Shown here: positions 21,659 to 64,000 of the stretch, piece by piece
Numbering within the stretch: the first letter of the stretch is position 1
Layout: each line of letters opens with the position of its first letter
Assembly (NCBI GenBank): GCA_963701085.1
Contig: OY969561.1
Span: 1,134,635-1,198,634, forward strand
Source: an uncultured bacterium
GTDB taxonomy: Bacteria; Babelota; Babeliae; Babelales; Vermiphilaceae
DNA length: 64,000 nucleotides
Direction of reading: 5' to 3'
The notes under the pieces: generated by a model
Told to the model about the DNA's origin: nothing
Seen by the model: the letters and a program-made list of their open reading frames with translations, nothing else
Database searches by the model: none
Made by a program: the position numbers and the translations under genes

Positions 21659-21997
21659 GTTTTTTGTTGAAGACTTATTATCATCCCAAACTTGTTTCCA
21701 AAGATAAGCTCCAGCCGTGATAAGTCCCGCAGCAACAATAGCAGTGGGAATCATTCCTTTTTTACTATTTTGTTGCTCTGTTCCTTGCAAATCAATAGCC
21801 GTCTGTATGGTGTCATACAGTAAATAGGTGCCAAGACCAATACTTGTAGTTGCAATCACCGGTTTAGCTTTATGATTAAGTTGTTCTCTCATAAATAAAA
21901 AATTATCTTTTTTATCATAATGATGATCATGTTCTATTTCAGCGTATGCGCAGAGAGTTAGTAGTAATGGTGTGAGTATAATAATAGTACTGTTCAT
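21656..21997 (-). CDS. Small hypothetical membrane protein
   Basis: Signal peptide plus two hydrophobic segments; ATGA overlap with the upstream gene. Confidence 0.65.
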   Translation of the reverse strand: MNSTIIILTPLLLTLCAYAEIEHDHHYDKKDNFLFMREQLNHKAKPVIATTSIGLGTYLLYDTIQTAIDLQGTEQQNSKKGMIPTAIVAAGLITAGAYLWKQVWDDNKSSTKN

Positions 21998-23160
21998 TGA
22001 TTGTCCTCATCATCAGATCCTGAACATGATGTGGGAGAATGATATCGGTAACCACCATAGGCAGCATATTTATCATTGAGGGTGATTTCCATAACTCCCT
22101 TATCATCGATAGTTATTGTATCGGCTAAATAAATTAAGTTTGCCCCGTCATAGTTTTTTGTATTGTTTATATCTGTGGTTACTTTGTATACGCATTTGCC
22201 ATCATCCTCCTCATCATCAGTAGAGCTATCATCGTTTGATGAAGATAAAGTTTCATCAGCATAATTGTGATAATAACCACCTGGCGAAAATGATTGAAAT
22301 TCTGATAATAATGCATCAATCTTACACTCGGCGGCTGTTTTAGTGATATAATCAATCAGGGTATTTGTAGAGTCTTGGTGCTTATTTTTGTCGCCAGACA
22401 GAATAAATATTGTTGGAATGGCGTTGTGTAAAAGAGAGGTAATTGTTTCTTTGCGCTCATCTGCAGTGTCAGAATTATCAATATTTATGTTACAGAATGC
22501 CAAATCTATACCATCTTTTGTATCCTGTAAAAAGTTACGTAAATAATCATTTGTTATTGTATTGCGCGTTATAATTTTGTCGTCAAATAGGGCAGAAAGT
22601 TCAGGATTGTTGTGTGGATAAAAAATGGATCCATTGCCGTGCTGAAAATAGTCCGCCATTGTTTTTGAAGTAAGATTTTCATCAATAACAAGAATGTGTT
22701 TGGCTAGTTGTGTATTTAATGCAAATGCAGCAGCAATGGGGATTGATGCATAGACATCGCCATTGGTACCTTGTGCATGTCCTGCAAATGAATAGCCTTC
22801 ACTTAAAGATATTGCATAATTCTGTCTTTTTTGGCGATCTTCTATTGCCGTTATTACGTCTATGGCTGCCAGCATGGTTGTGGTCACATTTTTGAGCATT
22901 GGTGTAAAGTAGGTTGTGCTGTAGTTATTGGGATAAAAATAGATGAAAGCATTATTGTTGATTGCTGAAAGCATTGCGCTTGGATGTTTTTCTATATTGT
23001 TTAAATATGCTTTTGAGTGTATGCGGGTAATGTTGGGCGCTGTGTGTTGTAGTATAACGTTGTGAGAGTGCTCACTAACAATAGAGGGGTTTGGTTGTTT
23101 TTCCATTCCGGTGATATTGGTACTGCAGAGTGCAAGAGCGAATAGAATCTGTTTTTGCAT
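21994..23160 (-). CDS. Secreted degenerate histone-deacetylase-like protein with acidic tail
   Basis: Motif order matches the HDAC fold (IHSKAYL; AISLSEGY; VYASIPIA; ILVID..HGNG; IPTIFILSG), but catalytic residues are missing; AAGGAG RBS. Confidence 0.55.
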   Translation of the reverse strand: MQKQILFALALCSTNITGMEKQPNPSIVSEHSHNVILQHTAPNITRIHSKAYLNNIEKHPSAMLSAINNNAFIYFYPNNYSTTYFTPMLKNVTTTMLAAIDVITAIEDRQKRQNYAISLSEGYSFAGHAQGTNGDVYASIPIAAAFALNTQLAKHILVIDENLTSKTMADYFQHGNGSIFYPHNNPELSALFDDKIITRNTITNDYLRNFLQDTKDGIDLAFCNINIDNSDTADERKETITSLLHNAIPTIFILSGDKNKHQDSTNTLIDYITKTAAECKIDALLSEFQSFSPGGYYHNYADETLSSSNDDSSTDDEEDDGKCVYKVTTDINNTKNYDGANLIYLADTITIDDKGVMEITLNDKYAAYGGYRYHSPTSCSGSDDEDNQ

Positions 23161-23245
23161 AGAGCTCCTTTTTTTAGTATTGATGAAGAAATAATCACCT
23201 TTTGGGTCATCTTTGTCAATATGTTAAAAAAAAAGGAAAGAGAAC

Positions 23246-24520
23246 ATGCAAGATCAAGTGTTTTGGTATCTCAATAATACCGGTACTGTTGCGCCGCTTA
23301 CCCATGATATTACTACTGATGTGGTAATTATTGGTGGAGGAATGGCAGGATTGACAGCAGCGCAAGCGTTTCGTTCTAAAGGTCATAATGTTGTGTTGAT
23401 AGAAAAAAATTATTGTGGTGCGGGTGCATCAGGAAAAAGTTCAGGATTTATAACACCAGATTCAGAATTGTCATTGTTTGAACTTATGCGTATTTTTGGC
23501 GCAGATACTGGAAAAAAATTATGGAATTTAATTGGTTCTGGCGTTGATATTATTCGGGATAATATTGAAAAGTACACTATTGATTGTGACTATCAAAAAC
23601 AAGATACACTTATTCTTGCAAACAGTTTACGCGCATTTAATAATGACATAAAAAAGGAATATAATAATCGTCAACAAGCAGGTTATACAAGTACTCTTTA
23701 TACCCAGCAGGAAGTAGGATCAGTTATTGGTTCCGATTGTTACAAGGGTGGCATATCATACGGCGGTACGTTTGGTATTCAAGCATATAAATATTGTTTT
23801 GGCATGAAAAAGATTTTACAAGAATTGGGCGTGCACATTTATGAAGAAACACCCGCGATTTGCATTCAAAATAATATGGTAACAACGCCACATGCAACAA
23901 TCAAAGCGGATCATATTGTTATGTGTGTGGACCGTTTTGAACCAGCAGCATCACTCTTGTGGGATAAGATATATCATGTACAAACATTTTTGATGCTTTC
24001 TGCTCCGCTTTCTGATACTCAGGTTAAAAAGATTTTTCCTGTAAAGCCATTCATGGTGTGGGACACTGATATGATTTATCAGTACTATCGCATCACGGGA
24101 GACAATCGTCTGATGCTGGGTGGTTCTGATTTGTTATATACGTACTCAAAAAATGAAACGCATGGTAATAATCGTGTGGCAAAAAAATTGATGCATTACT
24201 TTCATACAAAATTTCCATCTGTTGAAGTTGAATTTGAATATATGTGGCCGGGCATTATTGGTATTAGCAAAGATGTTTTTCCGGTAGCTGGTTTTGATGA
24301 AAAAATGTCATCAGTGTATTACATCGCCGGAGCCTGTGGATTGCCATTTGCTGCAGCGCTTGGTACCTATTGCGCAGAACGTATTATTAATAATAATCGT
24401 GAGTTTGATGACTATTTTTCACCGTATCGATCATCAACACTTGGGCCAATTACGCAAACAATTCTTGGCACGCGGTTGACGTTTGCATTATCAAACTTTT
24501 TATCTGTTGGGAGTTTATAA
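23246..24520 (+). CDS. FAD-dependent oxidoreductase (DAO/PuuB-like)
   Basis: DVVIIGGGMAGL, GASGKSSG, YYRITGDNRLMLGG. Confidence 0.88.
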   Translation: MQDQVFWYLNNTGTVAPLTHDITTDVVIIGGGMAGLTAAQAFRSKGHNVVLIEKNYCGAGASGKSSGFITPDSELSLFELMRIFGADTGKKLWNLIGSGVDIIRDNIEKYTIDCDYQKQDTLILANSLRAFNNDIKKEYNNRQQAGYTSTLYTQQEVGSVIGSDCYKGGISYGGTFGIQAYKYCFGMKKILQELGVHIYEETPAICIQNNMVTTPHATIKADHIVMCVDRFEPAASLLWDKIYHVQTFLMLSAPLSDTQVKKIFPVKPFMVWDTDMIYQYYRITGDNRLMLGGSDLLYTYSKNETHGNNRVAKKLMHYFHTKFPSVEVEFEYMWPGIIGISKDVFPVAGFDEKMSSVYYIAGACGLPFAAALGTYCAERIINNNREFDDYFSPYRSSTLGPITQTILGTRLTFALSNFLSVGSL

Positions 24521-24597
24521 ATAGTATAAGTTGATTTTTTCTGAGATTGACATAGAACTGAGTGAGAAAAAATGATTATTTTTATAAAGGAGACCTC

Positions 24598-63693: not shown

Positions 63694-63706
63694 TAGGATC
63701 ATACAT

Positions 63707-63829
63707 ATGACAAAAAGATTGGTTGCAACAATAATTTTAGCGATTACGGTATTATTTTTATCGTGGTATGCGTATCAGGAATATAAAAAATCGCAAAAAG
63801 GGCCTGAAGTTTTTATTCAAGCGCAATAA
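63707..63829 (+). CDS. 40-aa single-TM small protein
   Basis: AGGA RBS; MTKRLVATIILAITVLFLSWYAYQEYKKSQKGPEVFIQAQ. Confidence 0.55.
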   Translation: MTKRLVATIILAITVLFLSWYAYQEYKKSQKGPEVFIQAQ

Positions 63830-63918
63830 AATTTTAAGATGTCTCATTTGTTTGTTATTTTTGTGATTTTTCGTACACTTGTTGCAATGTTAACAATTAT
63901 ATTCAAAAAGGACGCACA

Positions 63919-64000
63919 ATGACGACAAAACAAATGATGTTTGCAGTGATGATTTTTATTACTATGAATAATGTTACTTTTTCTATGTTTAAAAAGAAAG
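63919..64000 (+). CDS. Start of a secreted protein (runs off the window)
   Basis: AAGGA RBS; MTTKQMMFAVMIFITMNNVTFS|MFKKK. Confidence 0.6.
   Translation, partial: MTTKQMMFAVMIFITMNNVTFSMFKKK

Follow-up and report, generated by a model that had tools for sequence, protein, structure and literature searches.

Methionine, mostly methionine-glutamate, at predicted signal peptidase I junctions of ankyrin, WD40 and orphan proteins in a Babeliales-like bacterium, and its possible role as a sorting tag

Introduction

Signal peptidase I (SPase I) accepts most residues except proline at the first position of the mature protein. For a 64 kb stretch of DNA from an uncultured bacterium, called the window in the following, this raises the question why many of the predicted exported proteins place a methionine, mostly followed by glutamate, at exactly this position. 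The genome, a single contig of 1,198,634 bp with a G+C content of 37%, ends with the window. GroEL shows at most 70% identity to any entry of a named-species collection. The gene content agrees with the main texts of published descriptions of Dependentiae (PMC6561590, PMC4378268, PMC4776705): about half of the genes have signal-peptide-like starts, and dozens of ankyrin and WD40 genes, parts of a type II secretion system (T2SS) and two secretins are likewise present. A very large part of the proteome is sent through Sec in bacteria of this kind; in a published relative, signal peptides are given in the main text for 44% of the coding sequences and for 78% of the ankyrin proteins (PMC6561590). 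A homolog of one of the secreted proteins, with 44% identity, carries the source label 'Candidatus Babeliales bacterium'. That the source organism is a Babeliales-like intracellular parasite of protists is a well-supported inference.

A first-pass annotation of the window had listed twelve N-termini of this kind, and all twelve translate as described, with a start containing Lys or Arg, a hydrophobic core, a small residue at position -1 and then Met (Table 1). Analysis of the whole genome and of relatives revealed that the observation is real, statistically very strong and lineage-specific. This paper will focus on the nature of the junction, on the proteins that carry it and on the readings by which it might be explained.

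Enrichment of methionine at the predicted cleavage site

By a codon-usage score, 1120 genes were called in the genome, and a lax signal-peptide heuristic, requiring a start made positive by Lys or Arg and then an uncharged hydrophobic 8-mer, flagged 560 of them. This heuristic also lets in cytoplasmic and membrane proteins, like ribosomal protein L24 and tRNA synthetases, by which the Met signal is diluted and not created. In 141 of the 560 proteins, the first charge that follows the hydrophobic core has Met as its direct predecessor (103 with Met-Glu and 23 with Met-Asp), while the same measure inside protein bodies gives 1.8% Met (binomial p ~3e-114). By a looser definition, in which a site compatible at -3 and -1 is followed by Met and lies no more than 6 residues from the first charge, 164 of the 560 were identified, and here Met is followed by Glu in 88 cases, by Asp in 18 and by other residues in 58.

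When 126 junctions were aligned on the Met, position -1 was occupied by Ala (43), Gly (32), Ser (22), Cys (15) or Thr (7), which accounts for 119 of the 126, and position -3 by Leu, Ile, Thr, Ala, Val, Ser or Cys in 121. Position -2 is often His or Tyr, positions -4 to -7 are rich in Ser and Thr, and the Leu, Ile and Phe residues of the core lie further upstream, with Leu, Ile, Phe or Val at -12 to -8 in the junction logo. The mean length of the signal peptide is 22 residues and the net charge of the n-region is +1.8. The claim that Met stands exactly at the predicted +1 position of an SPase I site was thereby borne out, since the residues at -3 and -1 fit the rule for this enzyme.

Behind the junction Met, Glu and Asp occur in a ratio of 100:19, as compared to 59:61 in the other signal-peptide-like class (p 1e-8), a skew towards Glu which hints at recognition by a specific binding pocket. 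The codons at -1 are diverse among synonyms (GCA, GGC, GGA, GCT, TGC, AGC and others), which implied selection at the amino-acid level. Judged from these sequences, the junction is selected at the protein level, in a class composed of ankyrin proteins, WD40 proteins, eukaryote-like enzymes and many orphans. As a separate observation, synonyms ending in C are favoured at the -1 codon (GGC 16 and GGT 3, AGC 10 and AGT 3, TGC 10 and TGT 5); this runs counter to the codon usage of the genome and may reflect avoidance of a T/A junction.

Proteins carrying the junction

The 119 strict cases form 73 single-linkage BLASTP clusters (E 1e-5), among them 58 singletons. The description of the carriers as unrelated families therefore holds on the genome scale and does not hold inside the window, where the twelve open reading frames (ORFs) belong to about six to seven families: the ORFs starting at 39603, 40532, 41936, 42879 and 43734 are ankyrin-family paralogs with 30-41% identity, and those starting at 50514 and 51935 are WD40 paralogs with 29.5% identity.

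For 112 of the 119 proteins (seven that cross locus borders were left out), a Pfam scan identified 19 ankyrin proteins, 10 WD40-type propellers, 8 single enzymes and 75 proteins without a family. The enzymes comprise a methyltransferase, a HIT/CwfJ protein, Pyr_redox_2, PLA2_B, a thymidylate kinase, a protein with a PEP-utilizers domain, a PLD-like protein and a weak HAD match. Among the other signal-peptide-like proteins, 120 of 190 were scanned (E<=1e-6), giving one ankyrin protein and no eukaryote-type WD40 protein. This class contains ZnuA, solute-binding proteins, Peptidase_S41, TolB-type PD40, FKBP, MreC, M48, S49 and BatD, and likewise collagen-like and Peptidase_S74 surface proteins, together with cytoplasmic false positives. 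A match to Ank or WD40 at E<=1e-6 is present in 22 of 112 proteins of the Met class as compared to 1 of 120 in the other class (Fisher p 5e-7). The expected accumulation of Met in ankyrin, WD40 and orphan proteins, and its absence from periplasmic housekeeping proteins, were supported. Within the window, the secreted oxidase and the G1 peptidase indeed have a signal peptide without junction Met, as had been pointed out in the first-pass annotation, and the DAO oxidase (23246-24520) is devoid of any signal peptide.

A census of the Ank_2 matches gave 16 ankyrin genes in the strict class, 12 with another leader and 14 without a leader, and the corresponding numbers for WD40 are 5, 4 and 2. By eye, most of those with another leader and some of those counted as leaderless read as a small residue and Met, followed by Lys, Asn, His, Ile, Leu, Tyr or Glu, and were missed by the heuristic. 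Ten of the 14 leaderless ankyrin genes belong to one fragmented cluster at 513-520 kb. This cluster (G000:C1:513500-520800), with about ten short ankyrin ORFs of 90-310 amino acids devoid of signal peptides, resembles a broken long multi-ankyrin gene or an array of leaderless ankyrin genes.

Leader length, hydrophobicity and the combined length of h- and c-region are equal in the Met class and in the other class, and a different type of signal peptide for the Met class was ruled out on these grounds. Since the same signal peptides in both classes meet a single SPase I, the difference lies in the junction itself.

Origin of the junction methionine

Besides a sorting tag, it had been considered that the Met might be a second start codon, the original start of the gene, or the border of an acquired leader cassette. 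If the internal ATG were a second initiation site, a cytoplasmic isoform would be produced beside the exported protein. The Met is always encoded by ATG by definition, and some database entries begin at the junction Met, both of which would agree with dual products. However, a Shine-Dalgarno-like motif (GGAG, GAGG or AGGA at -18 to -5) precedes 52 of the 119 annotated starts (44%) and none of the 119 internal ATGs, as compared to 37% of long genes in general and 4.3% of ordinary Met codons in protein bodies. Hexamers resembling a -10 element, as expected for leaderless transcripts, occur at 4.2% of the internal ATGs with a background of 4.4-5.0%. The flanking -3/-1 pattern and the preference for Glu are, in addition, features of the protein level. 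An internal start is thus disfavoured, and dual products are regarded as very improbable.

A shared leader cassette was searched for by BLASTN with the DNA of the signal peptides and 120 nt upstream. Within families, 35 similar pairs were identified. Only 10 pairs joined different families, and in most of these the similarity lay in the upstream region or in a low-complexity start. The DNA of the signal peptides is thus not shared between families, and origin by a leader cassette is disfavoured.

The Met could also be the former start of cytoplasmic or horizontally acquired genes, which gained a signal peptide by extension at the 5' end and in which the Met persists by inertia. Such a relic would be in line with the motif being commonest in young, lineage-specific families. 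Ordinary starts are, however, followed by Glu in 6.1% and by Asp in 2.5% of cases (8.6% of 560 genes without signal peptide), while behind the junction Met one of the two is found at 106 of 204 candidate sites and at 126 of 141 by the strict measure. The small residue at -1 adjoins the Met exactly, a precision which inertia does not provide, and sister families that are equally rich in signal-peptide proteins lack the motif.

Two adjacent thymidylate kinase genes (G000:C1:723623-724174 and 725144-725722, the second corresponding to L157:5039-5770) bear on this question from both sides. One product is cytoplasmic (MPQLTKGILIAIEG...) and the other carries a leader (...FTSHA/MENHKQLNRGILIAIEG...; the slash marks the predicted cleavage site here and below). 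The leader-bearing kinase is a recent duplicate of the cytoplasmic one, as would suit a relic start, but its junction Met is located 3 residues upstream of the start Met of the paralog. An exported nucleotide kinase is unusual, and it may act on the nucleotide pool of the host.

In a secreted HAD-like family, a leader is present in nearly all of 57 sequences, and Met occupies the junction column in 11 of them. Seven of these 11 read as Ala, Gly or Ser followed by Met and Asp or Glu, and six of the seven belong to the closest homologs, while other homologs have Ile, Gln, Ala or Thr in this column. With a near-universal leader and a Met confined to a subclade, the Met was introduced into a protein that was already exported, opposite to the order of events expected for a relic. 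Together with the rarity of Glu and Asp at position 2 of ordinary proteins and the offset in the thymidylate kinase pair, this disfavours the original start as the source of the junction, and a relic is considered distinctly improbable.

Conservation in homologous proteins

The protein encoded at 21994-23160 belongs to a family in which 16 of 24 database homologs (33-100% identity) read as a small residue and Met, followed by Glu, Lys or Arg. In an alignment of 16 sequences with 44% mean column identity, M1, K3, I5, M19 and P25 are the only invariant or nearly invariant positions among the first 25, and the near-invariance of Met19 amid varying neighbours again argues against a relic. An ortholog was identified in only 2 of 81 genomes searched, the source genome and G005, so that this family cannot show deep conservation.

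With respect to its function, alignment of the family to chain sequences of the PDB gave no match at E<=0.01, and Pfam Hist_deacetyl was found below threshold in 6 of 16 members. The top Foldseek matches are all histone deacetylases (HDACs) or lysine deacylases (E 1.5e-7, TM ~0.4-0.49, with a model pLDDT of 65.6). On this weak Pfam signal and low-pLDDT model, the protein is predicted to represent a family that is limited to the genus and folds like a histone deacetylase. In its consensus, the usual metal and His motifs appear to have altered surroundings, and the protein may be inactive.

Other pairs of homologs from different genomes, with 27-47% identity, also retain the Met, one of them spanning two families of the order (NTLTM/ESQP and GIAAM/EAQD with the slash placed behind the Met). 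Homologs elsewhere keep an open signal-peptide-like leader which differs in sequence.

Distribution across the order

Relatives of the same genus, family and order, with genomes of 0.8-1.9 Mb, were sampled at 80-200 kb per genome; families f5 and f7 and further members of f3 and f13 lie outside this sample. The strict motif was counted in 121 of 547 signal-peptide-like proteins of the source genome, in 10 of 99 in G006 of the same genus, and in 9 of 72 (G012) and 2 of 51 (G034) in the same family. In a second family, it was found in 8 of 94 (G028) and 5 of 44 (G032). AT-rich relatives of the order gave 0 of 41 (G058), 0 of 24 (G021), 0 of 42 (G030), 1 of 27 (G048) and 1 of 84 (G023). Since these come from three other families and have 0-1 cases per sample, base composition is not the cause of the motif. 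In other phyla, the same script identified 1 case in 244 (80 loci), and in unrelated bacteria passed through the same pipeline Ala is the commonest residue at the candidate +1 position, with Met at 2.3%. The junction is thus specific to a few related families within one order of small-genome intracellular bacteria, probably the Babeliales (Dependentiae).

The genomes were ranked in the same way by a looser metric, which gives the share of Met behind all positions compatible with the -3/-1 rule; it adds G057 at 11.5%, a value driven by one tandem paralog family. A Gln excess before the first charge in G057, considered as an analogous motif, was traced to this tandem family (VMS MYAAQ/E), which may itself have Met at a candidate +1 position, and was dismissed. 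The tandem ankyrin family of this genome, from a sister family of the order (L188-L190, at ~53-66 kb and 84-86 kb of the sample) has a common leader end, Val or Ser, Met or Ile, then S-M-Y-A-A-Q and Glu or Asp. This leader could be cut as S/MY or as A/AQ, and may represent a different junction habit of that lineage.

In the open main texts found on signal peptides, effectors, ankyrins and type II secretion of Dependentiae, Babeliales and Babela, the junction is not described. The word methionine is absent from the main texts of the three genome papers concerned (PMC6561590, PMC4378268, PMC4776705), the supplements being outside this search.

Signal peptidase and other leader types

The genome contains a single SPase I gene (G000:C1:661126-661950), which matches TIGR02227 with a summed score of 109.3 bits (family cut-off 47). 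Across 61 genomes of the order, SPase I gives either a contiguous match (~100-120 bits) or a match in two pieces. The two-piece type has an insert near model positions 104-115; tandem duplicates occur in some genomes, and both types can be met with in one family. As the source of the motif, a dedicated or altered signal peptidase was rejected: only one gene is present, and the split and contiguous types do not track the motif, as the split type occurs in G058 and G021 with no motif and the contiguous type in G034 with its two cases.

A habit of the export machinery with no meaning further downstream was considered as well. Met-Glu at P1'-P2' would then be tolerated or slightly favoured by the SPase or the Sec system of this clade, and rapidly evolving families would have reached this state by drift. 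The restriction of the motif to a clade and the broad tolerance of SPase I at +1 are compatible with such a habit. Against it, housekeeping proteins processed by the same single SPase I do not use Met, the two SPase I types are distributed independently of the motif, and both the conservation and the strong class specificity speak for selection. This explanation is therefore judged improbable. The Met-class leaders share with ordinary Sec/SPase I substrates the charged start, the hydrophobic core, the polar c-region and the small or neutral residues at -3 and -1, and passed the sequence tests for this type. The difference from ordinary substrates is Met at +1 in about one quarter to one third of the signal-peptide-like proteins, in one functional class and in few related families.

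Other types of leader were rejected. For lipoproteins processed by signal peptidase II, the Met class has the wrong residue at +1, which is Met in all members, with Cys only at -1 (15 of 119). An Arg-Arg pair within the first 12 residues, as in twin-arginine translocation leaders, is present in 4 of 119 Met-class proteins and in 6 of 206 other signal-peptide-like ones. In type IV prepilins, a short charged leader ends in Gly and is removed ahead of the hydrophobic segment, with Phe or Met at +1 and Glu at +5; the proteins described here have their hydrophobic segment before the Met, and their Glu at +2. True N_methyl pseudopilins are encoded by separate genes at 14596-16004. As side observations, a few of the 15 proteins with Cys at -1 may in fact belong to the lipoproteins, with Met in position +2, and the ORF at 31514-32269 (plus strand) of the window has a lipoprotein-type leader (VLLPGC) with Met directly after the Cys (C-M-H-V).

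The T2SS-like apparatus proposed in the first-pass annotation exists: genes for T2SSF, T2SSG and pseudopilins are located at 13354-16004, and two secretin matches and two T2SSE ATPases were identified elsewhere in the genome. These genes code for a candidate route of export across the outer membrane.

Features of the window

The coordinates of the twelve junctions, of the two contrast genes and of the T2SS-like genes are collected in Table 1.

Table 1. Junction-bearing ORFs, contrast genes and T2SS-like genes of the window. The slash marks the predicted cleavage site.
Feature	Coordinates	Strand	Junction	Met codon	Remarks
Protein with signal peptide and Met-Glu, predicted divergent histone-deacetylase fold	21994..23160	-	NITG/MEKQ	23104-23106	
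Ankyrin-repeat protein	38038..39603	-	TVHG/MEIP	39544-39546	Pfam Ank_2/Ank (L179:12675-14237)
Ankyrin-family paralog	39588..40532	-	LTHG/MKRP	40473-40475	Lys after Met, not Glu; 31-36% identity to its four paralogs; no Pfam match at 1e-5
Small orphan, GTG start	40567..40920	-	HNVC/METK	40855-40857	No Pfam family (L179:15204-15554)
Ankyrin paralog	40959..41936	-	ALQS/MELT	41880-41882	Pfam Ank
Ankyrin paralog	41959..42879	-	AIHS/MELT	42823-42825	Pfam Ank, Ank_2
Ankyrin paralog	42901..43734	-	ALQS/MELV	43678-43680	Pfam Ank_2 (L179:17538-18368)
WD40-type beta-propeller protein	49267..50514	-	TTFA/MESV	50449-50451	L180:3904-5157
WD40 protein	50634..51935	-	ITFT/MERV	51870-51872	L180:5271-6569
Orphan	55772..56236	-	SCSG/MDYM	56165-56167	No Pfam family
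WD40 protein	61798..63693	+	PAGA/MISQ	61882-61884	WD40 4e-31; Ile after Met
ORF cut by the window end	63919..64000	+	VTFS/MFKK	63985-63987	
Contrast: BBE-type FAD oxidase	8493..9989	-	ATNSL/DAEN		Signal peptide without Met
Contrast: Peptidase_A4 (G1)	24562..25476	+	VVGAH/DSFE		Signal peptide without Met
T2SS-like genes	13354..16004	+			T2SSF 13354-14565; T2SSG pseudopilin 14596-15045
Two N_methyl pseudopilins	14960-15610, 15525-16004	+			Part of the T2SS-like gene run

Several further genes were noted in the window. Two neighbouring ORFs on the minus strand, at 2671-4170 and 4350-4976, both contain a D-Ala-D-Ala ligase N-terminal domain; the first product, of 499 amino acids, has an N-terminal extension of about 150 residues, and the other, of 208 amino acids, consists of the N-domain only. 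A Fic/DOC-domain protein is encoded at 10319-11026 (plus strand). At 47676-48542 (plus strand), a HepT-like/NTase-substrate-binding ORF lies beside a MazG-like ORF, and the two may form a pair of the toxin-antitoxin type. Two small adjoining RRM_1 (RNA recognition motif) proteins are encoded on the minus strand at 60763-61092 and 61267-61608 (E 1e-24 and 2e-25).

Sorting in the bacterium or protection in the host

Two readings of the junction remain to be weighed, one acting in the bacterium and one in the host. In the bacterial reading, translation begins at the upstream start, which has a Shine-Dalgarno-like sequence before it, and the product carries an ordinary Sec-type signal peptide. Cleavage by the single SPase I is expected directly before the Met, behind the small -1 residue, so that the periplasmic or secreted protein would begin with Met, mostly as Met-Glu and less often as Met-Asp. 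The free Met-Glu N-terminus would then serve as an identity tag after Sec export, most likely read by a lineage-specific factor of the bacterium. This factor, like the export route, is speculative; it would separate cargo that leaves by the T2SS-like apparatus or by vesicles from residents of the periplasm and the envelope. This reading of the junction as a sorting or identity tag is ranked first, tentatively and at somewhat less than even confidence.

In the host-side reading, the tag would serve after delivery. A Met-Glu or Met-Asp N-terminus would resist Met aminopeptidase, would not form a classical Arg/N-degron and would resemble a NatB substrate, so that effectors would survive or become acetylated in the host. 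The substrates of NatB have Met-Asp, Met-Glu, Met-Asn or Met-Gln N-termini, and 114 of the 164 junction Met residues are followed by one of these four, although their becoming N-termini is predicted from the junction. The likeness is thus that the predicted mature N-termini are of the NatB type and not of the classical destabilising type. The Met class comprises proteins expected to act in the host, like those with Ank, WD40, PLA2_B, PLD-like and HDAC-fold domains, and small or hydrophobic residues are rare behind the Met (Glu 88, Asp 18, Lys 9, His 6 and Asn 5, as compared to Leu 9, Ile 5, Tyr 3 and Phe 2; n=164). Both points are explained by protection in the host. In the other class, the heuristic +1 residue is often Asp, Glu, Lys, Arg, Tyr, Ile or Leu, which by the established N-degron rules would be destabilising in the eukaryotic cytosol. 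For Babela, the main text infers secretion of signal-peptide-bearing ankyrin proteins into the cytoplasm of the amoeba (PMC4378268).

Several findings speak against protection in the host. Ala, Ser, Gly, Thr and Val at +1, the usual choices of SPase I, also avoid an Arg/N-degron, so that Met is not needed for this purpose. NatB acts mainly co-translationally, and the rules for NatB and N-degrons apply to proteins made by the host, largely during translation. Neither set of rules predicts the preference for Glu over Asp. N-degron pathways are universal in eukaryotes, yet sister families of the same lifestyle are devoid of the motif. In G057, the signal-peptide-bearing ankyrin proteins have junctions like LQSA/EHIL and QFFA/DAPV, assigned heuristically in the few ankyrin genes sampled. 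Overall, protection in the host is regarded as a real possibility, but somewhat unlikely.

The sorting tag is preferred for four reasons, which are not decisive. The positive requirement for Met goes beyond the avoidance of bad residues and suggests recognition. The skew towards Glu behind the Met is absent from the other signal-peptide-like class. The motif is limited to some families of an order that shares its lifestyle and presumably hosts with universal N-degron pathways. The leader-bearing ankyrin proteins of G057, finally, have A/E and A/D junctions by the heuristic.

In a more specific form of the sorting tag, the free Met-Glu N-terminus would be a licence read by a periplasmic receptor, which would hand the effectors over to the export machinery of the outer membrane. 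This would be a prokaryotic counterpart of the Plasmodium export element (PEXEL) and a linear sorting code for T2SS-like export; it is considered rather unlikely. PEXEL is a eukaryotic motif, RxLxE/Q/D, which is cut by an aspartic protease of the endoplasmic reticulum some distance downstream of the signal peptide. It is similar in that a very short motif near the signal sequence yields, after cleavage, a defined N-terminus, ending in an acidic or amide residue, by which proteins bound for the host are marked. It differs in that the motif described here is itself the predicted bacterial SPase I site. In the '+2' rule of the lipoprotein Lol system and in the surface-export signal of Bacteroidota, one or two residues of the mature N-terminus set the compartment after a common Sec step, as would be the case here. 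Those rules require a lipidated Cys at +1, while Met cannot be lipidated. In phytoplasmas, likewise intracellular and with small genomes, the effectors are also marked at the Sec leader, by signal peptides of the SVM type. There, however, the leader sequence is conserved, whereas the leaders of the Met class are diverse and only the junction residues are fixed.

A number of points weigh against the sorting tag as such. No candidate receptor for a Met-Glu tag was identified, and the signals of T2SS substrates are generally held to be structural and not linear. The cleavage sites are derived from the -3/-1 rule, not from a trained predictor or from measurement, and about one third of the Met sites continue with a residue other than Glu or Asp. 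Among the homologs of the HDAC-fold protein (21994-23160), 5 of 24 have no signal peptide and start at the Met-Glu or 3 residues ahead of it; these come from short contigs and may be either truncated or truly leaderless, and they would also suit a relic start. The ortholog in G005, of the same genus, lacks the Met (ISYA/AQTP), and Ile or Gly occupies the junction column of close HAD-like homologs, so that the tag is dispensable in places. Signal-peptide-bearing PP2C, PI3/PI4-kinase-like, PAF-acetylhydrolase and BNR proteins are devoid of Met, which means that some likely exported effectors do without the tag. In families f12, f4 and f13, unlike the motif-rich families f1 and f11, no enrichment of the motif was found in the 80-100 kb sampled.

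Implications

If the junction is a sorting code, it would be, to our knowledge, the first simple linear signal for T2SS-like export. For the uncultured relatives of this bacterium, the junction rule separates ankyrin, WD40 and orphan proteins from housekeeping exports, and thus offers a cheap predictor of the effector set. The junction also provides a concrete handle for finding the machinery of sorting or of protection. It represents a test case for the mature N-terminus of Sec-exported effectors being under selection, either on the side of the host or on the side of the bacterium.

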